A model generated the notes under the pieces. It was not told the origin of the DNA. It was given only the letters and a program-made list of their open reading frames with translations, and made no database searches. This document shows, one piece after another, positions 3,192 through 64,000 of a DNA stretch of 64,000 nucleotides. The position numbers and the translations under genes were made by a program. Numbering within the stretch: the first letter of the stretch is position 1; each line of letters begins with the position of its first letter. The stretch comes from an uncultured Verrucomicrobiota bacterium (lineage in GTDB: Bacteria > Verrucomicrobiota > Verrucomicrobiia > Limisphaerales > CAZIFU01). The stretch is from the NCBI GenBank assembly GCA_964539075.1, contig CAZIFU010000287.1, positions 15,134-79,133 of the forward strand, in the 5' to 3' direction.

Positions 3192-3593
3192 CTATTTCAA
3201 CCAGTTGATTTTGATTTCCTTTTCCAGCGGTTTGAAGTCGGTGTCGGCGGTGACGAGTTCGGCTTTTTTGCTTTTGGCTAGCGCGGCGGCAAAAGCATCA
3301 GCCAGGCCGAGGTCGTGCGCGGTTTTCAATTGCGCGGCTGACTCGGCCAGGTCGCGGTCGAGCGGCGCAACGTCCAGTGGCATCGAGTGTTCAAACCGGC
3401 GCGCGGTTTCCCAGCCTTCCTTGCCGTGCTTGTTTTGCATCTTGTAAAGCACTTCCGCCCAGTTGACGGCGCTGATGAGCATGGGCTTGTCGGCGTCGGC
3501 GGCTTTGTGGAAAAGGTCGCGCACCTGTTCCATGCCCGGTTGCCCGAAGAACATGGCCAGCAGCGCCGAGGCGTCGAGAACGGTGGTCTTCAC
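3192..3593 (-). CDS. vapC: PIN-domain VapC toxin
   Basis: VLDASAL, SAVNWAEV, LGLADAF, LVTAD acidic PIN motifs; overlaps upstream antitoxin by 4 nt. Confidence 0.92.
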   Translation of the reverse strand: MKTTVLDASALLAMFFGQPGMEQVRDLFHKAADADKPMLISAVNWAEVLYKMQNKHGKEGWETARRFEHSMPLDVAPLDRDLAESAAQLKTAHDLGLADAFAAALAKSKKAELVTADTDFKPLEKEIKINWLK

Positions 3594-4239: not shown

Positions 4240-5802
4240 ATGAACGCTCCACACACCCGTCGTGAATTCCTGGCGGATGTCGGCCGCGGCATGTTGGTCG
4301 CCAGCGTCGGCCATGGCATGGCGACCGAACTCGGACTCGCGCCCGCTTTCGCCGCCGAGGCGGCCGACTCACTCGACTTCGGCCCGCTCGAACCGCTCGT
4401 GCGTCTCATGCAGGAGACGCCCGTCAACCGGCTCCTGCCCGCGCTGGCCGGCCAGCTCAAATCCGGCACCGACCTCCGCCGGTTGGTCGCCGCTGCTGCG
4501 CTCGCCAACGCCCGCACTTTCGGAGGTGAAGACTACGTCGGCTTCCACACGATGATGGCGCTCGCGCCGTCGCTGCACATGGCCCACGAACTTCCCGACG
4601 CGCTCCAGCCACTGCCCGTCTTCAAAGTCCTTTACCGAAACACCAATCGCATCCAGGAACGGGGCGGGCGCAACGAGGAGGTCCTGCACGCGGTCAAACC
4701 CGCGACGCTCTCCGAGGGTCTCCCCGGCGGTGAACTTCTCCGCGACGCCGTCCACCGCAACGATGTGAACGAGGCCGAGCAAACCTTCGCCACGCTCGCG
4801 CAACGCAGCGCCGATGACGCCCTCAATCACCTCCTCCACACCGTGCAGGACCAGACCGAAGTCCACCGTGTCGTCCTGCCTTATCGCGCCTGGGATTTGC
4901 TCGACCTCATCGGCAAGGAGCAAGCCCACACGCTGCTCCGCCAATCTGTCCGCTACTGCGTGAAGGCCGAGTCGTGGCAACACACCGCTGCCTTGGACGA
5001 GCCGCGTACGCTCCTGCCGAAATTGCTCGAACGGCACAATCTTCTCGCCCGCGCGCCCGGCACCCGCGCCGTGGAAGACGAGTGGGTCGAGGAACTCAGC
5101 CAGACCATTTTCAAATCCACGCCCGAACAAGCCGCCGAAACCGCCGCCGCCGCGCTCGCCGAGGGTGTTGCGCCCGCCGCCGTCGGTGAAGCCATTTCGC
5201 TCGCGGCCAACCAACTTGTCCTCCGCGACACGGGCCGGACGCCGCGCGACGAAGTGGCCGGCAAACCGCCCGGCAGCGTTCACGGCGACAGCATCGGCGT
5301 TCACGCCAGCGATTCCGCGTGCGCCTGGCGCAACCTCGCCCGCGTGAGCAACGCCCGAAACACCTTTGCCTGCCTTATTCTCGGCGCGTATCAAGTTGCC
5401 CTCGACCGCACCGCGCGCGGCGGTGATTTCTTGAACTGGCCGCCGCTGCCGGTGAAGGGGCATCTCGGCCAGATCAAATCCACCGAGGCCGGCGCGCTGC
5501 TGCGCGAAGCCGATGAAGCCATCCGCCAAAACCTCCAGGGCCACGCCGCCGCCGTCATCCACCGCTATGGTGAACTCGGCCACTCCCCACGTCCGGTGTT
5601 CGACCTGCTGTTGCGCTACGCCGTGAGCGAAGACGGCGCGCTTCACGCCGAGAAATACTACCGCACCGTGACCGAAGAATTCGCCGCGCTGCGCCCGGCG
5701 TTCCGCTGGCGTCAACTGGTGGCGCTCGCCCGCGTCACCGCCAGCGAATACGGCCGGCCCGCGCCGGGGATGGCGGAGGCAAGAGTGGTTTTGAAGGTTT
5801 AA
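4240..5802 (+). CDS. Hypothetical protein with twin-arginine-like N-terminus
   Basis: 520-aa ORF with host-like codon usage; TRREFL motif; His-rich motifs (GFHTMM, VHGDSIGVHASD, LHAEKYY). Confidence 0.8.
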   Translation: MNAPHTRREFLADVGRGMLVASVGHGMATELGLAPAFAAEAADSLDFGPLEPLVRLMQETPVNRLLPALAGQLKSGTDLRRLVAAAALANARTFGGEDYVGFHTMMALAPSLHMAHELPDALQPLPVFKVLYRNTNRIQERGGRNEEVLHAVKPATLSEGLPGGELLRDAVHRNDVNEAEQTFATLAQRSADDALNHLLHTVQDQTEVHRVVLPYRAWDLLDLIGKEQAHTLLRQSVRYCVKAESWQHTAALDEPRTLLPKLLERHNLLARAPGTRAVEDEWVEELSQTIFKSTPEQAAETAAAALAEGVAPAAVGEAISLAANQLVLRDTGRTPRDEVAGKPPGSVHGDSIGVHASDSACAWRNLARVSNARNTFACLILGAYQVALDRTARGGDFLNWPPLPVKGHLGQIKSTEAGALLREADEAIRQNLQGHAAAVIHRYGELGHSPRPVFDLLLRYAVSEDGALHAEKYYRTVTEEFAALRPAFRWRQLVALARVTASEYGRPAPGMAEARVVLKV

Positions 5803-12395: not shown

Positions 12396-15194
12396 GTGGC
12401 TGAGCGCTCGCTTCCCATCTGGCAGCTTCATGCCGGCATCCTCGGCCATCTGAAAACCGGCAATCGCCTCGTGCTCGTCGCACCGACCGGTTCCGGCAAG
12501 ACCACGCAAGTGCCGCAGATGCTTCTCGACGCCGGCTTCGCTGGCGGAAATCCGAAATCCGAAATCCGAAATCCGAAACGGATTGTGGTGCTTCAGCCGC
12601 GACGGGTCGCCGCCCGCACCGTGGCCGCGCGCGTCGCGTGGGAGCGCGGTTGCAAACTGGGCAAGGAGGTCGGCTACCAGATTCGTTTTGACGATCAGAC
12701 CAGTCTCGGCACGCGCATTTGCTATGTGACGGAGGGGATTCTGCTCCGCTGGCTCCAGGACGACCGCGCGTTGCCGGACGTGGGCGTGATTTTGTTTGAT
12801 GAGTTTCATGAACGCAATTTGTTCAGTGACGTCGCGCTTGCGCTGGTGAAGCAGCTTCAGCAAACACAGCGGCCGGACCTGAAAATGGTCGTCATGTCCG
12901 CCACACTCGATGCCGAGCCGGTAGCGGATTATTTGGCGTTCGGGCATCCACCTTCCGGCGGCCCAACGGTAAAACCGCCTGAAGGCGGAACTCCAAACAC
13001 GGCCTGCCCGATTCTTATCTCCGAAGGCATCAGCTTCCCGGTGGAGATCCGTTACCTCGATCACCAGGACGAGCGGCCCATCACCGAGCAGGCGGCCGAT
13101 GGTGTCGAGGCCATCATCAACGCGGGCGAACCGGGGGACATCCTCGTCTTCATGCCGGGGATGGGCGAGATCAACGCCACGATCAACGCCCTGCGCGCCG
13201 CACGACTGATTGAACGCGTGGCGTTCATCCCGTTGCACGGCGATCTCCCGCCGGAGGAACAGGACCTGGCCTTCGCACAGAATCCGTTGCGCAAGGTGGT
13301 GGTCGCCACCAACGTGGCTGAAACGTCCGTCACCATTGACGGCATCCGGCACGTGGTGGACAGCGGTCTGGCGCGCGTGGCCCGCTACGACATCGAGCGC
13401 GGCATCGGCACGTTGTTCCTCGAGGACATCAGCCGCGCCTCGGCGGACCAGCGCAAGGGCCGGGCGGGCCGCACGGCGCCGGGCATGTGCCATCGGCTCT
13501 GGACCGCGAGCGGCCAGTTGAACCGCCCGGAGCGCAACACTCCGGAAATCCAACGCAGCGATCTGGCGGAGGTGGTGTTGCTGCTGCATTCGCTCGGCAT
13601 CAAGCGCGCCGCCGGGTTCGACTGGCTCGACAAGCCGGACCCACTGGCCGTCGAGCGGGCGGAGAAGCTGTTGCGGACGCTTGGAGCCTTACGAGCTTCG
13701 ATGCACACACCCCTCACGCGCTCTTCTGACAGCCCCCTCACCCCATCCCTCTCCCCCTCGGAGGGGGAGACGGTGCCCGCAGAGCGGGTGAGCGGTGAAA
13801 CCACCGACCTCACCCCCATCGGCCGCCAAATGCTCCGTTTGCCGATGCATCCGCGTTACTCGCGAATGCTGGTCGAGGCGTCGCGACGCGGCTGCGCGCC
13901 GGCGGCCGCCTTGTGCGCGGCGCTGGTGAGCGGCCGCGATTTGCTCCAGCGCGTGCGCCGGGAGGACCAGCACATCGCCGAAGCGCGCGAATTGTTCGAG
14001 GCCAGCCAGGACTCTGATTTTTTCACACTGATGCGGGCGTATCAGTTTGCGAAAAATTCCAACTTCAGCGTCGAGCGCTGCCGTCGCCACGGCATCAACG
14101 CGCAGGTGGCGCGGCAGGTGGAGCAGACGTTCGGGCAAATTCTCCAGATCGCGCAGCAACAGAAGCTGGTTCGGGGCCGGGAATCGGGGGACGAGGGCGA
14201 AGAACCTCCAACGTCCAACGTCCAACGTCCAAAGCCGGATGATGACGTCTTGCTGCGGTGCATCGTCGCGGGATTCGTTGACCAGCTTTGCCTGCGGCGC
14301 GATCAAGGGACGCTCGAATGCGATCTGACCGAAGGCCGGCACGGCACATTGATGCGCGAGAGCGTGGTGCAGAGCGCGCCCCTGTTTGTGGCGGCGACGG
14401 TTCGCGAAGTGACCGGGCGCGGCCCCGAGAACCTTACGTTGCTCGGTCTGGCGACGGCGGTGAAGCGCGCGTGGCTGGAAGAGATGTTTCCGGACCAGTT
14501 GAGCGCTCGCGTCGAGCACCTGTTCGACCGCACGCACAAACGTGTCGCCGGCGTGAAACTTGTGCGGTTCCACGACCTGGTCATTCATCACGAGCACCAG
14601 AGCGAAGTCGTGCCGGCGGCGGCGGGGCGCTCCCTGGCGGACGCCTATCACAAGGGCTATTTCGAACTGCCGCTGTTCAACCACGAAATAAAGCAATTCA
14701 TCGCCCGCGTGAACCTGGTCTGCGCGGCAAGGCCGGTACTGGAATTTCCGCGGTTTGACGAAACGGCGATCGCAGCGTGCCTGGCGCGGGCGTTCGCCGG
14801 GTTGACGCTGGTGAAGGAAGCGCAGGCCACGCATCTGAAGGAATCCTTCGCCGCGCACCTGGCCCCGGAGCAAGTCGGCTGGCTGGACGAACTCGCGCCG
14901 GCGGCGGTTCCCTGGCCCGGCGGCCGCAAGGTGAAGCTGCTCTACTCCGAGGACGCGGAGGCGGCGAAGAGCGAGGCGATTTCCCCGGAGGCGCAGGTGA
15001 AGTTGCTCGAGTGTTTCGAGCTCTCGGAGCATCCGCGCGTGTGCGAGGGCGCGATGCCGGTGAAACTCTGGCTGTGCGCGCCGGATGGAAAACGCCTGGA
15101 GTCCACGCTCGACTGGCCGGCCTGGAAGGCGGCGCAGTATCCGAAGCTCAAGCCGGCGTTGCTGAGGAAATATCCCGGCTTTACGTGGCGATAG
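12396..15194 (+). CDS. hrpB: ATP-dependent RNA helicase HrpB with four in-frame repeat inserts
   Basis: APTGSGKTT, DEFHER, MSAT, ATNVAETSVTIDG, QRKGRAGR; inserts near 12547, 12938, 13706, 14180. Confidence 0.92.
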   Translation: MAERSLPIWQLHAGILGHLKTGNRLVLVAPTGSGKTTQVPQMLLDAGFAGGNPKSEIRNPKRIVVLQPRRVAARTVAARVAWERGCKLGKEVGYQIRFDDQTSLGTRICYVTEGILLRWLQDDRALPDVGVILFDEFHERNLFSDVALALVKQLQQTQRPDLKMVVMSATLDAEPVADYLAFGHPPSGGPTVKPPEGGTPNTACPILISEGISFPVEIRYLDHQDERPITEQAADGVEAIINAGEPGDILVFMPGMGEINATINALRAARLIERVAFIPLHGDLPPEEQDLAFAQNPLRKVVVATNVAETSVTIDGIRHVVDSGLARVARYDIERGIGTLFLEDISRASADQRKGRAGRTAPGMCHRLWTASGQLNRPERNTPEIQRSDLAEVVLLLHSLGIKRAAGFDWLDKPDPLAVERAEKLLRTLGALRASMHTPLTRSSDSPLTPSLSPSEGETVPAERVSGETTDLTPIGRQMLRLPMHPRYSRMLVEASRRGCAPAAALCAALVSGRDLLQRVRREDQHIAEARELFEASQDSDFFTLMRAYQFAKNSNFSVERCRRHGINAQVARQVEQTFGQILQIAQQQKLVRGRESGDEGEEPPTSNVQRPKPDDDVLLRCIVAGFVDQLCLRRDQGTLECDLTEGRHGTLMRESVVQSAPLFVAATVREVTGRGPENLTLLGLATAVKRAWLEEMFPDQLSARVEHLFDRTHKRVAGVKLVRFHDLVIHHEHQSEVVPAAAGRSLADAYHKGYFELPLFNHEIKQFIARVNLVCAARPVLEFPRFDETAIAACLARAFAGLTLVKEAQATHLKESFAAHLAPEQVGWLDELAPAAVPWPGGRKVKLLYSEDAEAAKSEAISPEAQVKLLECFELSEHPRVCEGAMPVKLWLCAPDGKRLESTLDWPAWKAAQYPKLKPALLRKYPGFTWR

Positions 15195-15456
15195 GAGTGC
15201 AGGCACCCGTGCCTTCGCCCGGAAAGCTTCGAGTTCTTGTTCTTGCGGTTTCCCAAACTTTGTCGCATATGCGACGAAGTTTTGAAGCGCGTGGAGGCTT
15301 CGCATATTCGAAACTCAAGCGGACGTTGCTGATAAACATCCCGACTTTACGTGGCAGTAGGAACGCTGGCAGCTGTTCTCACGCTTGAACGTTTCAAGTT
15401 TTTGTTCGAGGGGTTATCCCAAACTTTGTCGCATATGCGACAAAGTTTGGGAGCGC
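15134..15456. repeat. 166-bp-period tandem duplication of the hrpB 3' end plus palindrome
   Basis: Stop-equivalent TAG at 15194 and 15360; TCCCAAACTTTGTCGCATATGCGAC at 15251 and 15417; perfect 36-bp palindrome at 15417-15452. Confidence 0.85.
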
Positions 15457-15513
15457 GTGAGGGCGTGAAACCCTTGTATTCGCGGGACGGCGGCCTGCGC
15501 TCCAATGCGGCGG

Positions 15514-38984: not shown

Positions 38985-39630
38985 CCCTCACTCCGGCCCC
39001 ACTGCCATTGAATTGAGCCCAAGACACGCTAAAGCGTGGACACCGAACGCGTGGAAACCCGTTTGGTGTGCACGCTTTAGCGTGTCCCGTTTCCAAGGAC
39101 CGTTCGCTAATTCAATGGCGGTGCACCCCGGCCCTCCCGAAGGGAGAGAATCCAAGGACGCGCGATCGCGCATAGTGCCCATGACCCGGCTGAGGGACTC
39201 GCCGGCGCGCCAGCGTCTTGGAGTGCGGCAGTCCTCTGCCGCTGTCGCAAGCCGCGGGAGTCCGAAAGCGCCAGAGGACTGGCGCAGTCCAAGACCTTGC
39301 GGAGTGAGGACGGTTCATGGGTAGCCTCCACTTCCAACTTTGGACGCGCATCGGGGCCATGAACTGGTTAGCGCTTCCGTTGTCGCGCCAGCGTCTTGGA
39401 GTGCGCCAGTCCTCTGGCGCTTTCGACCACCCACGACTTTCAAAGCGCCAGAGGACTGGCGCAGTCCAAAACCTTGCGGAGTGAGGACGGTTCATGGGTA
39501 GCCTCCACGATCCGAACATCGCGTACTGGAACCATCAACCCTGGAGCGCGGCATTTATGCCGCTTCACGAATCGTGCAGTATGGGACGTCGAAGCGGCAT
39601 AAATGCCACGCTCCAAAGGCGGTTCACGGG
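38985..39630. repeat. Modular nested repeat cluster
   Basis: CCCTCAC element split by a 14-bp-IR element (39001-39122) carrying a REP pair; three consecutive CCATGAAC...GGTTCA(T/C)GGG shells carrying hairpins. Confidence 0.8.
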
Positions 39631-41997: not shown

Positions 41998-42152
41998 AAT
42001 GGTGACGACGACACTAACATTCCGGCGCGCCGTTCGGCCAGCCCATTCCGCAGGGGGAACATGGGCTGGCCATTTCACCTTGGGAGCAGCCTCGATCTTC
42101 CTGAAACCGAAAGCCGGTGATGGTCGGTAAAATCGCCCACCCCATGAAACTC

Positions 42153-42304
42153 GTAGCCGCCGACGTCAGTCGGCGCACTGCCTTCCCGTCCGAGAACATT
42201 TGGCGCGGACTGACGTCCGCGGCTACCCGGCACCGTAGCCGCCGACGTGAGTCGGCGCTCATCGTTCCTGGCATAAGAGTGCGCCGACTGACGTCGGCGG
42301 CTAC
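42153..42304. repeat. Four GTAG REPs in two inverted pairs
   Basis: GTAGCCGC(C/G)GACGT(C/G)AGTC(G/C)GCGC at 42153, 42203, 42235, 42281. Confidence 0.9.
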
Positions 42305-42428
42305 GGTTCATGTTACCGCGGCGGCGAAATCCATCGTTCCTGGCCCGACTTCAGGCTTGCCAAAACCCGCGCGCTTTGCTTCCATGCAACCAAGCAAACT
42401 CCAACCCACCTTCAACCGGAGAAATACC

Positions 42429-43199
42429 ATGAATTCTTCTTTGCCTTCTGATTCGAATCGCGGTCCGCGCATCCTCAGTCCCGATGCCATTGCGCTGTTG
42501 CGGCGGACGCGGCAAGGCATGTTAGTCCGGATGCTGTCCGGTCCGGCGGCGGGTGGCGGGGTGCGGGGTGCGGGCGCGTCGCGGCGGCAGTTCCTCAAGG
42601 GCGCGCTGCTCGGGGCGGCGGCGTGGTCGCTACCGTGGGCCGCGCGGGGAGCAGCTGTAGTCCAACAGCTATCAGGCACGAACTTTGTCGCCAACGCAGA
42701 GTTTGAGTTCGTGGACACGTCAACATGCGCGTTGGGTGACATCACACACGTCAGCGTTCTAACTGGCGTGTCGATGGTGAAGAACGGCGAGACAAACCCC
42801 GCTCCGCTGACGGCGGTCGCAATTGCTCGCTTGAACTTCTGCACTTTTTATTCTCAGTTCGCCATCGGCAATGTGGTGAACCCGACTCAAATCATCGATA
42901 GCAAACTGAGGACAGCGTCAGTGGATGTTGACATTCCGGTTCAAGACGAAGGCACGAATACGGTCGTTCTCGCCCACGTGAATATCCAATGGACGGCGTT
43001 ATCCAATGCAGCGGCGGCCACTTTTAACGATGTCTTCACCGCGCCGGGATTGACAGTTGGCTACCACTCCACCGGGAAATTCATCCCGGCAATCGCAGTC
43101 GGATCGGTTACGATCGGAACTCACAACTTTACGCCCCAGCCGTCGATTGAGGCTATTATCGGCAAGGCCAAGACTCACCTGATTACGGTCCAGCACTGA
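42429..43199 (+). CDS. Hypothetical Tat-exported beta-rich protein
   Basis: SRRQFLKG motif then hydrophobic stretch; GGAGA RBS; mature region looks less GC-rich than host genes. Confidence 0.7.
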   Translation: MNSSLPSDSNRGPRILSPDAIALLRRTRQGMLVRMLSGPAAGGGVRGAGASRRQFLKGALLGAAAWSLPWAARGAAVVQQLSGTNFVANAEFEFVDTSTCALGDITHVSVLTGVSMVKNGETNPAPLTAVAIARLNFCTFYSQFAIGNVVNPTQIIDSKLRTASVDVDIPVQDEGTNTVVLAHVNIQWTALSNAAAATFNDVFTAPGLTVGYHSTGKFIPAIAVGSVTIGTHNFTPQPSIEAIIGKAKTHLITVQH

Positions 43200-43344
43200 A
43201 TCACTGCATACTGACGAGGAGCGAATCCAAGCCATAACGCGTAAGTTCTAAATGGCGTTTTGTTGACTTCATGGTTGGATGGTTTTTCTGACAGCGTCCG
43301 GCACCTTTACCATCAGCCACTGAGCGCGCCCTTTCGCCCCATCC

Positions 43345-43501
43345 GTAGCCGCCGACGTCAGTCGGCGCACTTCCTTCCCGCCGGAGAAACCTTGGCGCGG
43401 ACTGACGTCCGCGGCTACCGCGCGCCGTAGCCGCCGACGTTAGTCGGCGCAGTCTTTCCCCCTCACCCGAAAAATCAGCGCGGACTCACGTCCGCGGCTA
43501 C
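43345..43501. repeat. Four GTAG REPs in two inverted pairs
   Basis: Copies at 43345, 43395, 43427, 43478. Confidence 0.9.
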
Positions 43502-43506
43502 GAGGG

Positions 43507-44133
43507 CTATTCCATCTCGCGCGGCGGGAGGATCCGTTGCTCGATACCCGGTTCGCGCACCGACAAGTAGTGCTTCCAAAACCACGGCCAGTAATCCGGC
43601 TCGAAGGGATTCAATCGCGGATACCCCGGCACGACCGCACCCAGATACGGCCAGTCCGGCGGCGCCTTCACCAGCCCGCCCTTGAACGGATTGAGCAGCA
43701 CGTAATCCGCGCAGGCGAGGCTGAACGCGCGCCGTTGCCGCTCCTCCGCCGTGAGCACGTGATCGTGCGGCTGATGCTGGAACTTCGCCGGCTTGAGGAA
43801 CGGACCGAGTTGCGCGCGGAGAAACTTCATCCCGTTGCGCTGGTCGGCCTGCTTGCGGATGCCCATCCAGACAAGATGAACGTGGTTGGGCATGAGGCAA
43901 TAGGCCGGGCAGAGCAATCCCTCGCGGGCGGCGGCATGAAGCATCATCTCGCGAAAGGCGGCGTGGAAGGAATGGTCCAGCCAGCCCGATTGGCGATGCG
44001 CCACGGGCAGGGTCCAGAAGACCACGGCGTCGGCCTGGTAAAACTCGCGCTTCAACCGCGGGAGATAGTGGGAGAACGAGGAGCGTGGCTTGCGCTCGTC
44101 AGGGTTTGGGGAACCACCGGATGGATCGGGCAT
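43507..44133 (-). mobile_element. REP-associated tyrosine transposase (RAYT, Y1/HUH family)
   Basis: AYCLMPNHVHL HUH motif, DYVLLNP...GL catalytic Tyr, DWPY; flanked on both sides by GTAG REPs. Confidence 0.88.
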
Positions 44134-44146
44134 GGGCGGGAGATTA

Positions 44147-44202
44147 GCGCGGACTTACGTCCGCGGCTACGCCGCGTCGTAGCCGCCGACGTGAGTCGGC
44201 GC
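44147..44202. repeat. Two GTAG REPs upstream of the RAYT
   Basis: Copies at 44147-44170 and 44179-44202. Confidence 0.88.
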
Positions 44203-51415: not shown

Positions 51416-52365
51416 CCCCGAGCGCCGTTGATGCGATCACTTGTCAAAGCGACGAAAACATCCTCCAGCGACGGCGCAATCGGCCGGATGTCCGCGCGCG
51501 CGATGCCCACCTTCGTCAGTTCCTCGCGCATGAGTTGCTCGGACATGTCCTGCTCGATCAGCAGGTGCATGGATTGGCCGAAGACCGTCGCGGCCTTCAC
51601 CCCCGGCAGCCGCCGCAACGACTGCAAGCCCACCGTCACGTGCTCGCACGTCACGTCCACCCGGCGTGTGCCGGGCGGGTTGACGACGCGGAGTTGCTTG
51701 AGCGCATCCGGCTCGCCGCACACCACCAGTTTGGAGAAGGAGATGTAGCCCACGTGCGAACAGCGTTCCGCCTCGTCCATGTAATGCGTCGTGATGAACA
51801 GCGTGATCCCCTTGCTGGAAAACTCGAAGAGCAAATCCCATAACTCGCGCCGCGCCACCGGATCAATGCCCGCCGTCGGCTCGTCGAGAAACAGCACGCT
51901 CGGCTTGTGTACCAACGAGCAGGCCATCGCGAGCCGTTGCCGCCAACCGCCGGAGAGCAGGCCGGCGCGGCGAGCGAGGTAGGGTTCGAGGTGCGTGAGC
52001 GTGATAAGTTCGTCGCGCCGCTGCGCCAGCGCCGCGCCGCGCAGCCCGTAGAGCCGCGAGTAAAACGTGATGTTCTCGTGCGCCGTCAATTCGTCGTAGA
52101 GCGAGAACTTCTGCGACATGTAACCGATGAGCGACTTGATGTGCTCCGTCTGCCGCGCCACGTCGTAGCCGGCGATGGTCGCGCGCCCCTCGGACGGTTC
52201 CAGCAGCCCGCACAACATGCGGATGACCGTGGACTTGCCCGAGCCGTTGGGACCGAGGAAGCCGAAGATGGACCCTTTGGCGACGCTGAACGACACGCCG
52301 TCCACGGCGGTGAAATGTCCAAACCGCTTCGTCAGGTTTTCACATTCGATCATCGCGTCGGGCAT
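51403..52365 (-). CDS. ABC transporter ATP-binding protein
   Basis: [33 protein letters not shown]. Confidence 0.93.
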   Translation of the reverse strand: MPDAMIECENLTKRFGHFTAVDGVSFSVAKGSIFGFLGPNGSGKSTVIRMLCGLLEPSEGRATIAGYDVARQTEHIKSLIGYMSQKFSLYDELTAHENITFYSRLYGLRGAALAQRRDELITLTHLEPYLARRAGLLSGGWRQRLAMACSLVHKPSVLFLDEPTAGIDPVARRELWDLLFEFSSKGITLFITTHYMDEAERCSHVGYISFSKLVVCGEPDALKQLRVVNPPGTRRVDVTCEHVTVGLQSLRRLPGVKAATVFGQSMHLLIEQDMSEQLMREELTKVGIARADIRPIAPSLEDVFVALTSDRINGARGNDE

Positions 52366-52373
52366 GGTGAAGA

Positions 52374-52991
52374 TCACTCGGTTGTTACCTCGAACCCCTC
52401 AAAGCGCTGTTCCCAAACTTGCATCAACGGTCGCCAGTCATTCCCGTCGCCAGCCCTCAGTGCGGCGAAATAATTGGACTCGCCTGCGGTCTCCGTGGGA
52501 ACAAGGTCAACCGGCGGAAGTTCCAACCGGCGGAGCAATTCACGAAGAAAGAGACGGGTGACACGACCATTGAAATCGTTGAACGGATGGATCGAGAGCA
52601 GGCGCCCCTCGGCAAACGCGAGCATTTCCAGGAGCAGGTCATCCATCTTCCTGCTGGCATTTTGGAGACGCACACGAAGGTTCTCGCTGTAGTCACGCAT
52701 GAGGATGGGCACGCGAAACGGCGGTGGTGGGTTGTGCTCGCCGACCGTCACCTCGGCGTCGCGCCACCGACCCGCCCATTCGGGCACCAGATCAGCGGCG
52801 ATTTCAGAATGAAAACGCAGGATGAGTTCGCCACCGGGGTCTTGGGCAGCAAAAGCGCCTGAAGCAATGGCGGTTTCCACGCGGAGCACACGTTCGGCCA
52901 GCAGCGGCGCCAACTGCGAATAACTCAGGAGGCCGCTTGTGGTTTGAATGAAGCGGGTCGCTCCGCCTGGCGGTGTAGTTTCTCCAGCCAT
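52374..52991 (-). CDS. Fic-domain protein (class I toxin candidate)
   Basis: HPFNDFNGRVTR, a variant of HPFx(D/E)GNGRxxR. Confidence 0.88.
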   Translation of the reverse strand: MAGETTPPGGATRFIQTTSGLLSYSQLAPLLAERVLRVETAIASGAFAAQDPGGELILRFHSEIAADLVPEWAGRWRDAEVTVGEHNPPPPFRVPILMRDYSENLRVRLQNASRKMDDLLLEMLAFAEGRLLSIHPFNDFNGRVTRLFLRELLRRLELPPVDLVPTETAGESNYFAALRAGDGNDWRPLMQVWEQRFEGFEVTTE

Positions 52992-53122
52992 GATTGGTCA
53001 ACGGCCTCCTTCTCGAACGCCATGGACAGGGCCACCTGGCGCGGAATCCGCCGCCAACAAATCTCCTGCCGGGCTTCAGCATTGAGCCGCCGCCAGCGTT
53101 GGATGGTTTCAGTCCATTTCAT
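52925..53122 (-). CDS. Small protein, candidate FicA-like antitoxin
   Basis: Directly upstream of and overlapping fic; SMAFEK resembles the (S/T)xxxE(G/N) inhibitory motif. Confidence 0.6.
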   Translation of the reverse strand: MKWTETIQRWRRLNAEARQEICWRRIPRQVALSMAFEKEAVDQSWLEKLHRQAERPASFKPQAAS

Positions 53123-53128
53123 GCCGGA

Positions 53129-53157
53129 ACATTACTGCCGATGCGGTAGCCAGACAA
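53129..53157 (-). promoter_or_regulatory. Putative sigma70 promoter of the Fic cassette
   Basis: TTGTCT-17 nt-TAATGT, ATG 6 nt downstream. Confidence 0.6.
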
Positions 53158-53159
53158 GA

Positions 53160-53324
53160 CTACAATCCGCATAACATGCGGATGACTGTGGACTTGCCCG
53201 AGCCATTGGGACCGAGGAAGCCGAAGATGGACCCCTTGGCCACGCTGAACGATACGCCATCCACAGCGGTGAAATGCCCGAACCGCTTGGTCAGGTTTTC
53301 GCAGTGGATCATCGCGTCGGGCAT
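53160..53324 (-). pseudogene. Duplicated, truncated 5' end of the ABC ATPase gene
   Basis: 54 codons match 52204-52365 with 16 mismatches, 14 synonymous, then TAG. Confidence 0.95.
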
Positions 53325-59598: not shown

Positions 59599-61815
59599 TC
59601 AACGCACGGCGCGTTTGCGTTTGCCGCCGCGCGGGTAGCGGACTTTGACAGGGGCGGCGGGCGACTGCATTCCCAGTGCACCGCGTTTGAGTTCGTTGAT
59701 CTGATCGCGGAGCAGCGCGGCTTTTTCGAACTCCAGGTTGTTGGCGGCTTCGAGCATTTCGGCTTCGAGTTCGCGGAGGGTCTCGGTCACGTCGAAGTTG
59801 CCGCCGGCTTCGTTGATCACGGCCGCGGCGCGGGCGGAGCCTTCGCGATACACCGCCAGGCTGTCCTCGACGGCGCGGCTGACGCTGCGCGGGGTGATGT
59901 GGTGCTCGCGGTTGTAGGCGAGCTGCTTCTCGCGGCGGTAGTTGGAAATGGCCAGAAACTTTTGAATGCTCTGCGTCATCACGTCGGCGTAAAGGATCAC
60001 TTCACCGTTCAGATGGCGTGCGGCGCGGCCGGCGGTCTGAATCAAACTCGTCTCGCTCCGGAGAAAACCTTCCTTGTCAGCGTCGAGAATGGCGACGAGC
60101 GACACCTCCGGCAGATCGAGGCCTTCGCGCAGCAGGTTGATGCCGACGAGCACGTCGAACTCGCCCTTGCGGAGCCCGCGCAGAATCTCGACACGCTCGA
60201 TGGCGTCAATCTCGCTGTGCAGGTAACGGACGTTGATGCCGATGTCGCGGAGGTAATCGGTCAGTTCCTCGGCGGTGCGCTTGGTCAGCGTGGTGACGAG
60301 CACGCGCTCTTTTTGCTCGACCCGTTTGCGCGCCTCGTTGATGAGGTCATCAATCTGGCCCTTGAGCGGTTTGACGGTGATGACCGGGTCCACCAGGCCG
60401 GTGGGGCGGACGACCTGTTCGACGACGCCGGAATTTCCACTGCCCAGGCCCTCGCTTTGCGGGACCACCCTCTCCCCACCCGATGGGGAGAGGGACGGGG
60501 TGAGGGGTGCTCTTGTTTCTTCCGTAGCAGCCGACGTGAGGAGGCTCTGATCAATGTCCTTTGAAGAATGAGCCTCCTCACGTCGGCTGCTACGAACTTG
60601 AAGGGCACTCTCCCCTGCCCATTGAATTTCCCGACCGCCTGGCGTGGCGCTGACATAAATGGTCTGGTTCTGGTGGCCTTGAAACTCGCCGAAGTTCAGG
60701 GGGCGATTGTCGAGCGCGCTGGGGAGCCGGAAACCGTGCTCGACGAGGACGGTCTTGCGCGAGCGGTCGCCTTCGTACATCCCGCCGATCTGCGGGACGG
60801 TGGCGTGCGACTCGTCAATCACAAGCAGGAAATCCGGCGGGAAAAATTCCATCAAGGTGCAGGGCCGCGAACCGGCCGGCCGGCCGGTGATGTGGCGCGA
60901 ATAATTTTCAATGCCGGAACAAAAGCCCATCTCCTCCATCATCTCCAGGTCGTACTCGGTGCGCATCTTGACGCGCTGGGCTTCAAGCAGTTTGCCGTGC
61001 TTTTCGAACCACGCGATGCGGTCGCCCAGTTCCTCGCGGATGGTCAGGACGGCGCGCTTTGTTTTTTCAGCGGGCGTGACGAATTGTTTGCCGGGGAAAA
61101 CGGTGACCACTTCCAGGCCCTCGATTTTGTCACCGGTGAGCGGCTCGAAGCGGGTCAGGCGCTCCACCCGGTCGCCGAAAAACTCGATGCGCAACGCGTC
61201 TTCCACGTAGGCGGGGCACAGTTCGACGGTGTCGCCGCGCACGCGGAACTGGCCGCGGGTGAACTCGATGTCGTTGCGGTTGTATTGCAGGTCCACCAAA
61301 CGGAGGAGGAACTGGTCGCGGGTCAGTTCCTGGCCGGCGCGCAAGTGGACGAGCATCGTCTCGTAATCCTCCCGGCTGCCGATGCCATAGATGCACGAGA
61401 CGCTGGCGACCACGATCACGTCGCGTCGCGCGAAGAGCGAACTCATCGTCGAGAGCCGCATCCGCTCGATCTCCTCGTTCACGCTGGAATCCTTCTCGAT
61501 GAAGGTGTCGGTGCGCGGGATGTAGGCTTCGGGCTGGTAATAATCGAAATAACTCACGAAATACTCGACGGCGTTGCGCGGAAAAAAACTTTTGAATTCG
61601 GCGTAAAGCTGCGCCGCGAGCGTCTTGTTGTGCGAGATGACGAGCGTGGGCTTGTTTACGTTTTGGATGGCATTGGCGATGGTGAAGGTCTTGCCGGAGC
61701 CGGTGACGCCGAGCAGCACCTGATGCTTCGCGCCGGACAACAGCCCCTCGGTCAGCTTCGCAATCGCTTGCGGCTGGTCACCGGCGGGCGCGTATGGGGC
61801 GACGAGTTCGAACAT
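59599..61815 (-). CDS. uvrB: Excinuclease ABC subunit B with ~60-aa repeat-derived insert
   Basis: [50 protein letters not shown]-terminal UVR domain. Confidence 0.97.
60459..60593. repeat. In-frame GTAG REP hairpin plus CCCTCACCCC element inside uvrB
   Basis: Perfect 23-bp arms at 60524-60546 and 60571-60593; second element at about 60461-60507. Confidence 0.9.
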
Positions 61816-61870
61816 TTCTGATCGCGCGGGTTTTCCTCGGGCAAGCGCAAAGAGACGATTGCACGGCGAT

Positions 61871-62158
61871 TCAAATAGCCTTGGCCAGTTGGCGGCGCTT
61901 CATGCCCAGGCGAAAAAGGGTTTGCAGCAGCAGGTCAATGGATACCGTGGCATCGGCCGCCTCCATCTTGGCAACACGGGATTGACTGGTTTTCAAGCGC
62001 GCCGCCAAGGCCGTCTGCGTGAGTCCCTGTTCCTGTCGCAAAGCGCGCACCTGACGGGCGAGCGCCCGTCGCATCTCGATGAATTCCAGGTCGGCGTCGG
62101 ACAGGTCTAGGAAGTCCTGCACCGAGCCTTCCACCCAACCGTTTTTCAACTTTTTCAT
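61871..62158 (-). CDS. XRE/HTH antitoxin
   Basis: [24 protein letters not shown]; overlaps toxin by 4 nt. Confidence 0.9.
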
Positions 62159-62487
62159 GGCTGGCTTGCTTCGTAGAGTTTCACCCGCCGCCGGCAGTTT
62201 TGGATTACTGCGTCCGGCGTTTTTTCAGTCTTCTTCTCAAACACGTCCAGAACCACGACGGCGTCCGCTTCGAGGCGGTAAATCACCCGCCACGCTTTGT
62301 TCCGGTCGTTCACGCGCAACTCGTGGCAGCGCGGACCGATGATCGGCATCGGGCGGGAGTGGGGCAGACCCAGGTTCTCGCCGTCCTGCAAGTCTCGCAA
62401 GAGCATCCCGATTTCCCGCCGGGCTTCCACGCTCATCGGCGGGGTTTTCACCTCGCCGTGCAGCCAGCGCAGGGGCTTGCCGTTCAT
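62155..62487 (-). CDS. RelE-like (Gp49/DUF891-type) toxin
   Basis: LPHSRPMPIIGPRCHELRV, WRVIYR, FEKKTEKTP. Confidence 0.9.
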   Translation of the reverse strand: MNGKPLRWLHGEVKTPPMSVEARREIGMLLRDLQDGENLGLPHSRPMPIIGPRCHELRVNDRNKAWRVIYRLEADAVVVLDVFEKKTEKTPDAVIQNCRRRVKLYEASQP

Positions 62488-62497
62488 CGTGCGATGG

Positions 62498-62526
62498 AAG
62501 CTATGTCAGAACAGGTATAGTGTCAA
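62498..62526 (-). promoter_or_regulatory. Putative sigma70 promoter of the RelE-XRE cassette
   Basis: TTGACA-17 nt-TAGCTT, 10 nt before ATG. Confidence 0.65.
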
Positions 62527-62533
62527 CCGCGTG

Positions 62534-62658
62534 CCCCGTGATACCGACCAGCTTCTGGTGCTTCGCGCCGGACAACAGCCCGTCGGTCCGGTTCGCAACT
62601 CCGAAAGCTTTCGAGGCCGGTCACCGGCGGGTTTGAACGATGCGGACAACTCAAACCT
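62534..62658 (-). pseudogene. Degenerate duplicate of the uvrB 5' end
   Basis: RFELSASFKPAGD...[+8 nt]...[22 protein letters not shown] versus Uvr[14 protein letters not shown]...[22 protein letters not shown]; exact 23-nt match tgcttcgcgccggacaacagccc. Confidence 0.9.
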
Positions 62659-62928
62659 GCCAATCGAACGTCTGAGCAGGCGCGAGCGTGTCAACACGGG
62701 TGGTGTCACGATTTTCGGGAAAGGGGTCCAGCGCCGGGAGGCACGCGTTGATTCGGTCAAAAAGCGCCGTCAGAGAGGCGCTCACCATCGCGACGGGCCT
62801 GCCGAACATCCGCCGGGCGTTTCCGGGCGAATAATTACTTCACTTCGGCCGGCTTTCAGTTAATCTGGACAATCACAAGCACACACGATGCGCCCGCCTC
62901 ACGCAAAGCAGTATTCACCGACGGCGTT

Positions 62929-64000
62929 ATGAAGTTGCTCGTCTTCGCTCACACCCCGCCGCCGCATCACGGCCAGAGCTACATGGTGCAACTCATGTTG
63001 GCCGGCTTCGGCGGGGACCGGTGCAAGCGCGCGCCGCAAACTCACACCGCCGCGCCTGAGCACGCGGCCCGCTACGGGATTGCCTGCTATCATGTCAACG
63101 CCCGCTTGTCCCGAAAGCTGGAGGACATCGGGAGCGTCCGACCGGCCAAGCTGGTGTTGCTCCTGGGTTATTGTCTGCAAGCCCTCTGGTGCCGCGTCCG
63201 CTTCGGTGTCACCAATTTTTACTACGTGCCCGCCCCCGGTCAACGCTCAGCGCTGTTGCGCGATTGGGTGGTCATGCTGCTGTGCCGGCCGTTTTTCAAG
63301 CGAATCATTTTGCACTGGCACGCCGCCGGTTTGTCCACCTGGCTGGACACCGCTGTGCCCGCCTCCTCCCGCTGGCTCACTTACCGGCTGCTCAAACACG
63401 TTGATCTGAGCATCGTCCTCTCGGCCTTCAACCGGGCGGATGCCGAAAAATTCCTGCCCCGCCAGATCCAGGTCGTCAGCAATGGCATTCCCGATCCCTG
63501 TCCGGACTTTGAACGGGAGATTCTGCCGCGGCGCAACGCGCGATTCGCCGCCCGCGGCAAGATTCTGGCCGGCGGGAGGCTGACGGACGCGGAGCTGGAA
63601 AACACCGGCGGGGATCCGCAAATCTTCCGCATCCTGTTTCTGGCCCACTGCACCCGGGAGAAAGGACTCTTCGATACAGCCCAGGCCGTCCTCAGCGCCA
63701 ATCGCCAACTGGCCGCCAGCGGCAGCCCGATCTCGCTGCATTTGCAGGTGGCGGGCAACTTCGTGACGGCAGAGGAAAAAGCCGGGTTCGATCTTCTGCT
63801 CGCGGACCCGCAAACCCGCCGCTTCATTGCTTACACGGGCTTTATCTCGGGCGAGGAGAAGCACGCCGTTCTCAAAACGGCCGACTTGTTCTGTTTTCCA
63901 ACCTGTTATCGGAATGAAAATCAGCCGGTGAACCTGATCGAGGCGATGGCCTACGGATTGCCGATCCTGACCACCCGCTGGCGTTCCCTGCCCGAACTGC
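62929..64000 (+). CDS. Glycosyltransferase family 4 (3' end outside window)
   Basis: Not in the ORF track; MKLLVFAHTPPPHHGQS..., LHWH, FPTCYRNENQPVNLIEAMAYGLP (E-x7-E). Confidence 0.88.
   Translation, partial: MKLLVFAHTPPPHHGQSYMVQLMLAGFGGDRCKRAPQTHTAAPEHAARYGIACYHVNARLSRKLEDIGSVRPAKLVLLLGYCLQALWCRVRFGVTNFYYVPAPGQRSALLRDWVVMLLCRPFFKRIILHWHAAGLSTWLDTAVPASSRWLTYRLLKHVDLSIVLSAFNRADAEKFLPRQIQVVSNGIPDPCPDFEREILPRRNARFAARGKILAGGRLTDAELENTGGDPQIFRILFLAHCTREKGLFDTAQAVLSANRQLAASGSPISLHLQVAGNFVTAEEKAGFDLLLADPQTRRFIAYTGFISGEEKHAVLKTADLFCFPTCYRNENQPVNLIEAMAYGLPILTTRWRSLPEL

Follow-up and report, generated by a model that had tools for sequence, protein, structure and literature searches.

In a 64,000-nucleotide (nt) stretch of DNA from an uncultured Verrucomicrobiota bacterium (contig CAZIFU010000287.1, positions 15,134 to 79,133), referred to here as the window, a predicted toxin-antitoxin (TA) operon of the HigB/HigA type stands between the intact uvrB gene and a decayed copy of the 5' end of uvrB, and uvrB appears to be transcribed from the TA promoter. 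With moderate confidence, this cassette is taken to have been captured from a diverged relative by a recombination anchored through homology within uvrB and closed by an illegitimate junction on the other side, an event of the kind called terminal displacement. An earlier sequence-only reading of the locus was partly right: the TA cassette, the old relic and the promoter capture stand, and the relics of this and similar loci are better read as gene ends displaced by recombination with relatives. The locus is followed here in minus-strand order, from the relic promoter through the relic uvrB start, cassette promoter, toxin, antitoxin and spacer to the working uvrB. Its parts, with the evidence for each, are these:

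59599..61815, minus strand: intact uvrB, 738 amino acids (aa), from the list of open reading frames (ORFs) and the only 100% self-match in tblastn.
61699..61815, minus strand: functional copy of the repeated segment, uvrB codons 1-39 (nt 1-117), from repeat search and alignment.
61816..61870, minus strand: 55-nt spacer from the antitoxin stop to the uvrB ATG, from the coordinates.
61871..62158, minus strand: HigA-like XRE/HTH antitoxin, 95 aa, from Pfam.
62155..62487, minus strand: HigB-like toxin (RelE/ParE superfamily, Gp49/DUF891), 110 aa, from Pfam PF05973.
62488..62528, minus strand: cassette promoter and putative operator, from motif, conservation across contexts and RNA-type contigs.
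62534..62658, minus strand: relic copy of uvrB codons 1-39, from repeat search, blastn, tblastn and alignment.
62659..62694, minus strand: relic of the native uvrB promoter, from comparison with the uvrB upstream regions of relatives.

The two copies of the uvrB start were recovered by a repeat search as 64 nt at 84% and 36 nt at 75% identity, the offset between them moving from 835 to 843 because of an 8-nt insertion in the relic, and by blastn as 97 nt at 79.4% identity (E = 7.6e-15). Local alignment of the cassette flanks scored 90, against 18.3 +/- 2.2 in shuffles (z = 33). Aligned codon by codon, the relic differs from the functional copy by 31 substitutions in 39 codons (73.5% identity), and overall identity lies at ~74-79%, or 86-90 of 117 nt depending on the alignment. 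The substitutions fall 8/9/14 on the three codon positions (P = 0.04), the start codon has changed from ATG to AGG at 62658-62656, and the reading frame is broken; the relic is matched by tblastn in two frames, which fits a frameshift from the insertion. The sequence-only reading had described a RelE-like and XRE pair beside a 39-codon copy with substitutions, a lost ATG and an 8-nt insertion at 62534-62658, and the domain matches and alignments bear out each of these points. It had also raised a separate uvrB paralogue as a possible source of the duplicate; tblastn with UvrB across the whole window found no uvrB-like segment besides the two copies, so that such a paralogue is not indicated. 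The flanking repeats, ~117-125 nt long and spaced at a period of 835-843 nt, enclose an insert with two ORFs only, and no integrase ORF was found inside it or within ~3 kb on either side. The genes adjoining the locus are a glycosyltransferase gene, a methyltransferase gene and uvrB itself. The copies cease to resemble each other at the start codon, so that the repeated segment excludes the promoter: the spacer and the region upstream of the relic resemble each other at chance level (P = 0.48), by which an extension of the repeat into the 5' untranslated region, hinted at by a MAFFT alignment, was ruled out.

By domains and gene order the insert encodes a type II TA pair of the HigB/HigA type, for which toxicity and neutralisation are predicted. 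The toxin matches PF05973 over residues 19-103 (E = 7.2e-14, 52 bits against a cut-off of 23.9), and the antitoxin matches the Pfam families HTH_37 (2e-10) and HTH_3 (8.5e-10), its matches to NCBIfam TA antitoxin families all lying below the curated cut-offs. The toxin gene comes first, with the antitoxin start overlapping the toxin stop by 4 nt, and the same pair architecture was found in 10 or more homologous loci. The toxin has 1705 homologues at E <= 1e-10; among the 120 listed, nearly all are 110 aa long, and the closest are 85-89% identical.

The cassette promoter begins almost where the relic ends. Its -35 box TTGACA lies at 62526-62521, 7 nt past the relic end at 62534, and is followed after a 17-nt spacer by the -10 box TAGCTT at 62503-62498, which leaves the toxin, with its ATG at 62487, near-leaderless; the spacings of 7 nt here and of 55 nt between antitoxin stop and uvrB are those first read from the sequence. 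The -35/-10 region, including the motif TTGACnnnATGnCnnnnCTGACATA, is kept in the cassette family across six independent genomic contexts, among which homology sets in right at the -35 box and runs to the stop codon; in the closest pair, the window and the Verrucomicrobia metagenome-assembled genome L083, it reaches ~10-18 nt past the antitoxin stop. These sharp limits were considered as transposon-like termini and the idea was rejected, the conserved block from -35 box to stop being simply the functional operon. A scan of 61600-63000 with a strict sigma-70 consensus returned no promoter, the cassette promoter included, and the cassette promoter is called because of its conservation and the RNA-type contigs.

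In seven relatives (L093, L088, L091, L089, L090, L001 and L002) the native uvrB promoter has the form TTGACN-17-TAnnTT followed after ~8 nt by the ATG, and this short distance implies leaderless or near-leaderless mRNAs in the clade. The start of the clade's uvrB ORF (ATGTTCGAAC) holds a palindrome, GTTCGAAC. In the window the counterpart of this promoter lies on the relic side, upstream of 62658, where the sequence-only reading had proposed to look for it: a -35 box TTGACA is present at 62694-62689, 36 nt before the former start codon, at the position conserved in the clade, and its region matches L093 in 12 of 13 nt at equal distance from the start codon, with the -10 position decayed to ACGTTC. 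The 55-nt spacer before the working uvrB contains no recognisable promoter, no clade-type motif and no terminator. It has no significant similarity to the corresponding spacers of L190 and L191, the closest relatives of the cassette (P = 0.15-0.95), and a specific 29-nt promoter deletion in the window spacer, once entertained, was dropped for that reason.

Transcription was followed in Logan contigs from two runs labelled RNA-Seq (X3 and X4, carried as 'RNA?'). Their depth varies from 0 to 251 over 20 kb, as RNA would, whereas that of the DNA run X1 stays level, with 12-16 in the majority of bins. A single X3 contig spans 61682-62480, overlapping X4 contigs span 61825-62482 and 61688-61852, and depth is zero over 62492-62867, relic included, in both runs. 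Transcripts thus appear to start near 62490, within ~10 nt of the predicted start, and to cross both TA genes and the spacer into uvrB, while the relic appears silent. This agrees with the earlier suggestion that uvrB is transcribed from or through the TA promoter. Because the RNA-type contigs are interrupted at the conserved Walker A region, expression of the uvrB body is not measurable from them. In the arrangement proposed, uvrB would have been stripped of its own promoter and be co-transcribed with the TA operon from a promoter presumably regulated by the antitoxin.

The working 5' end of uvrB seems not to be simply the better-kept twin of the relic. Compared with L093, the window uvrB shows 11.8% mismatch up to ~nt 441 and 23.5% after it, and third-position mismatch rises from 0.23 to 0.41 at the same point (permutation P < 0.002 for a change point near nt 441); no such gradient along uvrB was found with three other relatives. 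The functional 5' copy is identical to L093 uvrB in 107 of 117 positions (91%), against 86-90 of 117 to the relic, and the mosaic tract extends ~320 nt past the repeat. From these comparisons, uvrB is mosaic, the part up to ~nt 441 being of another lineage type than the remainder.

Further inside the gene, an in-frame insertion at ~60440-60640 makes the window uvrB ~60 codons longer than its counterparts in L001 and L002 (738 against 678-680 aa), and L093 uvrB has a different insertion at the same place. The insertion in the window holds a perfect palindrome with 25-nt arms, CGTAGCAGCCGACGTGAGGAGGCTC ... GAGCCTCCTCACGTCGGCTGCTACG, at 60523-60594, the head of which, GTAGCMGCSGACGT, is shared with a repeat cluster at 42-44 kb (13 matches in the window against 0.13 expected). 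It looks like a hairpin element resembling repetitive extragenic palindromic (REP) sequences or miniature inverted-repeat transposable elements, tolerated in a core gene.

Relatives of the cassette supply the donor-type arrangement. The closest toxin homologues, in L190 (89% aa identity) and L191 (86%), which come from two other metagenomes, lie directly upstream of uvrB, and the spacer of each holds a promoter-like motif, TTGAC-17-TAnnnT or AACTTT. No uvrB relic was detected in the 1.5 kb and 0.4 kb upstream of these two cassettes (z <= 2.9); the window itself, used as control, gave z = 25-30. In L193 (toxin 88%), a relic of six uvrB start codons, ATGTTTGAGCTCGTCTCA (MFELVS), lies 18 nt before the -35 box of the cassette. 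This string occurs 10 times in 2.55 Mb of fetched sequence, and its placement in L193 has a chance expectation of ~2e-4; the five matches inspected were L193 and true uvrB starts, and the other five are in loci fetched through uvrB. The relic ends at ~codon 40 in the window and at ~codon 6 in L193, the contig of which stops before a downstream uvrB comes into view; a later deletion inside one original relic may also have produced this difference. The antitoxin-uvrB junction is also kept in contigs from two further runs, which match the window at 92% and 98% identity. The adjacency of cassette and uvrB is widespread; the relic is a lineage-specific feature, with an inner end that differs between the window and L193. 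The absence of a duplicate in L190 and L191 and the other breakpoint in L193 argue for recombinational capture rather than for a dedicated insertion that duplicates its target.

When uvrB upstream regions were compared, as the sequence-only reading had called for, six relatives (L093, L088, L091, L089, L001 and L002) each showed one uvrB 5' end under its native promoter, no cassette, and differing upstream neighbours. No flanking repeats were found around cassettes of the same family in L085, L168, L169, L171 and L178 (z <= 1.7). Searches with UvrB gave at best 72% aa identity among genome contigs, with different neighbours, and 85% among metagenomes, non-syntenic; the neighbouring glycosyltransferase has no relative above 70% aa identity, and the context of one relative (P0128) is without uvrB. 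Synteny upstream of the cassette or of uvrB differs among the window, L190, L093 and the others examined, so that homology at the locus is one-sided. No cassette-skipping or circle junction was found among the joints listed, in part the best-supported ones, for the contigs of eight runs, and contigs cannot show rare forms.

The structure recurs, as the sequence-only reading had noted for the window: two further units stand in the window itself, and others were found in L083 and L166.

1041-2053: cassette 1, ahcY, a repeat of its 3' end and, lying between the two, ORFs of 63 aa and 189 aa.
52204-53324: cassette 2, a Fic-domain protein of 205 aa and a 65-aa ORF, inside an operon.
2845-5781 of L083 (GCA_016190045.1): a pfkB-family kinase gene with a TA cassette on both sides, each with an adjacent gene-end copy.
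4972-6550 of L166, an unrelated metagenome contig: a Phd-like antitoxin and a PIN-like toxin, then a 192-nt copy of the 5' part of a ferredoxin gene.

In cassette 1 the stretch at 1041-1149, the final 36 codons of ahcY, is found again at 1945-2053, the repeat ending exactly at the stop codon; its two ORFs, the toxin candidate included, gave no Pfam, NCBIfam or PDB sequence match. In cassette 2 the first 54 codons of a gene for an ABC-transporter ATPase (to 52365) recur at 53163-53324, and depth is zero in the RNA-type runs. The unit upstream of pfkB in L083 is a homologue of the HigBA cassette at uvrB (toxin 85%), with the pfkB 5' copy beyond it; the unit downstream carries the pfkB 3' copy (pair 95-97% identical) and Phd-like and ParE-like Pfam matches below curated cut-offs. 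A long REP-like palindrome lies in this 3' unit at ~4935-5040. The Phd-like and PIN-like assignments in L166 were made by reading the sequences. Two looser cases were seen: a single gene that reads by eye like DinD between 70-nt repeats (L115, 1813-2875), and small ORFs between ~146-nt repeats in a cyanobacterial chromosome (L064, 6954-7780).

The copies at cassettes 1 and 2 are 88.9% and 90.1% identical with intact frames, against 73.5%, an indel and no start codon at uvrB, so that the uvrB copy is the more diverged, in line with the first reading. The manner in which the sister copies differ is given below, with differences at codon positions 1/2/3.

ahcY 3' end pair: 12 differences, 2/1/9, 3 amino-acid changes, P = 1e-4.
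ABC ATPase 5' end pair: 16 differences, 2/0/14, 1 amino-acid change, P < 1e-5.
pfkB 5' end pair (L083): 14 differences, 2/2/10, 4 amino-acid changes, P = 4e-4.
Ferredoxin pair (L166): 18 differences, 6/1/11, 7 amino-acid changes, P = 0.002.

Mainly synonymous differences and intact frames indicate that the copies in these four pairs were functional alleles until recently and diverged before they were joined, for which reason percent identity is not a clock. On this pattern the extra gene ends at the sister loci are best taken as foreign alleles from other lineages, not decayed duplicates, and the uvrB relic is the only copy that looks truly decayed. The earlier suggestion that the duplicates decay with age, as products of one repeatedly active duplicating mechanism, finds no support in that form, given these pairs together with the missing duplicate in L190 and L191 and the other breakpoint in L193. 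The outer edge of the repeat lies at an ORF boundary, at the stop codon for ahcY and pfkB 3' and a few nt from the ATG for the ABC ATPase gene and uvrB, which is where homology between genomes with different neighbour genes would end; the flanks of cassettes 1 and 2 align by eye no better than unrelated sequence. At the six cassettes examined, the insert consists of two TA genes plus 7-300 nt, with no integrase in or next to any of them, and the relic-side repeats are all 90-190 nt long.

The following course of events would produce this anatomy. In the ancestor, uvrB would have stood under its own near-leaderless promoter beside a divergent glycosyltransferase gene, and the incoming DNA would have come from a diverged relative that already carried the HigB/HigA operon directly upstream of uvrB. 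The right junction would have formed by homologous recombination inside uvrB, ~440 nt into the gene, near nt 441. The left junction would be illegitimate because the upstream neighbours differ and homology is absent there; through it the resident uvrB would have been fused, at ~codon 40, to the cassette edge that lies just upstream of the -35 box. What preceded that point in the resident, the promoter and first 39 codons of uvrB, would thereby have been stranded upstream as a useless fragment that then decayed, and the working uvrB 5' end would be the imported allele. Homology-facilitated illegitimate recombination (HFIR), or a closely related one-sided recombination, would be the pathway. Cells that lost the insert through recombination between the copies would be selected against, since the addictive TA pair would go with it; deletion of such a unit, or of a restriction-modification (RM) unit, plausibly kills or arrests the cell. 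That only addictive modules are seen inside such repeats would then be survivorship, other inserts between 100-190-bp repeats being easily deleted. The anatomy, the relic promoter, the unbroken RNA-type contigs, the mosaic, the donor-type arrangement in relatives and the allele-like sister copies are observed, and it is inferred which way the DNA moved, by what pathway, and what part addiction played.

Several points weigh against such a capture. The collections searched yielded no empty site between the same flanks, so that the pre-insertion state is a reconstruction. L093, closest to the imported uvrB 5' end, is without the cassette, in L191, which does carry it, the uvrB 5' end is far more distant, and the actual donor lineage is unsampled. 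Being assembled contigs, X3 and X4 record neither strand nor true 5' ends. In each of the five well-resolved cassettes, only 7-44 nt separate the end of the TA operon from the illegitimate junction, less than would be expected of random fragment ends. This might be put down, post hoc, to a predominance of short donor tracts, of which only those holding the whole TA operon survive; alternatively, there may be a dedicated activity that mobilises the cassette. Published HFIR events, including those reportedly described by de Vries and Wackernagel in 2002 and by Prudhomme and colleagues in 2002, are said mostly to delete recipient DNA, not to duplicate it. Finally, the codon-position signal in the uvrB pair is weak (P = 0.04), so that duplication in place followed by decay is possible at this locus.

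Such a duplication in place, in which the cassette entered at the uvrB start by an unspecified mechanism that duplicated ~120 bp of target and left the upstream copy to decay neutrally, is judged unlikely. Its topology is that reported by Furuta et al., with long direct repeats reaching to a start or stop codon and no mobility gene (PMC2853133), the near-random substitutions, indel and lost start codon of the uvrB relic suit it, and the 95-97% identical pfkB 3' pair of L083 could be a fresh duplication. However, four of the six repeat pairs are synonymous-biased with intact frames, which neutral decay cannot yield; the functional uvrB copy is nearer to L093 (91%) than to its supposed twin (74-77%), and the mosaic runs ~320 nt past the repeat. 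The same cassette also adjoins uvrB in relatives without any repeat, and the outer repeat edge coincides with the ORF end in most cases, unlike the product of a random staggered event. Allele-like differences and repeats confined to coding sequence would be accounted for by a self-propagating cassette with gene-end arms, in a Campbell-type cycle: a circle of one repeat and the cassette, or a linear piece, would re-integrate in the conserved gene end of relatives and recreate the repeats as donor and recipient allele pairs. The great compactness of the cassettes fits this, as does the virus-like life cycle hypothesised for RM units (PMC2853133). Such a cycle predicts a constant inner breakpoint, yet the breakpoint is at ~codon 40 in the window and ~codon 6 in L193, and L190 and L191 have no repeat; it predicts no donor tract past the repeat, yet the mosaic reaches ~nt 441; and no cassette-skipping joint or circle junction appeared among the joints listed, contigs missing rare forms. 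It is regarded as rather improbable. A wider version would have TA cassettes, in Verrucomicrobia-like genomes and other phyla, act as autonomous homing units with a borrowed gene end as their sole mobility device: repeat-cassette-repeat would be released, enter relatives and re-insert by homologous recombination, addiction guarding against loss. It is equally doubtful; if true, Kobayashi's virus-like RM life cycle would reach TA systems, and core-gene promoters such as that of uvrB would be rewired in passing.

Where an integrative element inserts into a gene end, it brings along a replacement for that end, which purifying selection maintains. The locus might accordingly be read as the remnant of an integrase island that targeted the uvrB 5' end, with a replacement end at its attP, and was later reduced to its TA module; a replacement end under purifying selection would give synonymous-biased repeats ending at the ORF boundary, and TA modules are common island cargo. 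None of the six cassettes, each being two TA genes plus 7-300 nt, has an integrase in or beside it, however, and they occupy six different target genes; the breakpoint at uvrB varies between the window and L193, relatives carry the cassette without a repeat, and independent shrinkage to a minimal operon at five loci is improbable. This origin is therefore considered very improbable.

Other features of the window stand apart from the cassettes. The REP-like palindromic repeat cluster lies at 42152-44202, with 107-nt units 61-91% identical and 33-nt cores GCGCGGACTGACGTCCGCGGCTAC; it surrounds a 208-aa ORF (43507-44133, minus strand) with a weak match to IS200-like Y1 transposases (Pfam E = 0.16), which may be a gene of the REP-associated tyrosine transposase type. 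A PIN-domain (VapC-like) ORF at 3192-3593, minus strand (Pfam PIN 2.3e-21), is probably another TA toxin; no flanking repeat was detected there. Two short tandem-like repeat pairs occur at 39167-39508 and 15168-15464, with periods of ~177 and 166 nt and 67-81-nt units 77-99% identical, the second of which contains the palindrome TTTGTCGCATATGCGACGAA.

If capture from relatives is correct, type II TA operons without transposase or integrase would spread among related genomes by riding the end of a conserved neighbouring gene and would leave displaced gene ends as datable scars, a testable answer to how chromosomal TA operons move. The same reading would offer a mechanism for the RM insertions with long target duplication, and synonymous-only divergence between repeats, which tells import of a foreign allele from true target duplication, could be used as a diagnostic on those cases. 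At the locus itself, a core nucleotide-excision-repair gene would have come under an antitoxin-controlled promoter, which could couple uvrB expression to the TA stress response. For annotation, short orphan ORFs beside TA pairs may be displaced ends of neighbouring genes.

Among known systems, the proteins are ordinary members of the HigB/HigA type. Toxin-first order, the 4-nt overlap, sizes of 110 and 95 aa and a conserved promoter are shared with these systems, as is a partly palindromic sequence spanning the -35/-10 region of the promoter; the location and the read-through into uvrB are odd. Integrase islands with their attL and attR share direct repeats of a gene end, a stop at the gene boundary and a working replacement end, and differ in that the loci described here have no integrase, many targets, a variable breakpoint and an insert below 1 kb.

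The nearest likeness in topology is the insertion with long target duplication of RM units (Nobusato et al. 2000, Gene 259:99; Furuta, Abe & Kobayashi 2010, NAR 38:2428, PMC2853133). In those cases the repeats often span the start or stop codon of the neighbour, which stays intact, most cases are in naturally transformable species, insertion inside operons is possible, and the mechanism has been open since 2000 (PMC2853133). A small addictive unit, no mobility gene and long direct repeats (46-423 bp there, ~90-190 bp here) are common to both; the cargo differs, RM genes there and a type II TA pair here. Repeats longer than 30 bp, an insert below 20 kb and no other mobile element, by which Furuta et al. 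recognised their cases, are found at the uvrB locus; repeats closest to each other are not. In Helicobacter pylori rows of their Table 3, the repeats are mutually closer than either is to the empty site (e.g. 417/423 against 345/370; PMC2853133), unlike at uvrB, where the functional copy is nearer to another lineage than to its twin and the sister pairs are synonymous, which argues for allele import over target duplication. The literature search returned no description of TA cassettes flanked by displaced or duplicated gene ends, and 'insertion with long target duplication' was tied to TA systems only in reference lists; the scar type is known for RM genes and little described for TA genes.

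In mechanism, the closest parallel is the terminal displacement at Rhs and contact-dependent inhibition loci and at effector-immunity loci of the type VI secretion system, which has been attributed to HFIR (Jackson et al. 2009; Kirchberger et al. 2017, PMC5361080). A homology anchor in a conserved region, an illegitimate non-homologous end and an orphan resident gene end are common to both, and the alleles within one genome come there from different strains, not from duplication (PMC5361080). Two features expected of terminal displacement were found at uvrB, a donor-type arrangement in L190 and L191 and a foreign tract running into the anchor gene to ~nt 441. In the Rhs and type VI systems a variable toxic tip and its immunity gene are moved and a weapon locus is diversified (PMC5361080), whereas in the loci described here the end of a conserved housekeeping gene (uvrB, ahcY, the ABC ATPase gene, pfkB) would be displaced with an unrelated TA operon as passenger, and at uvrB the side effect would be the replacement of its promoter.

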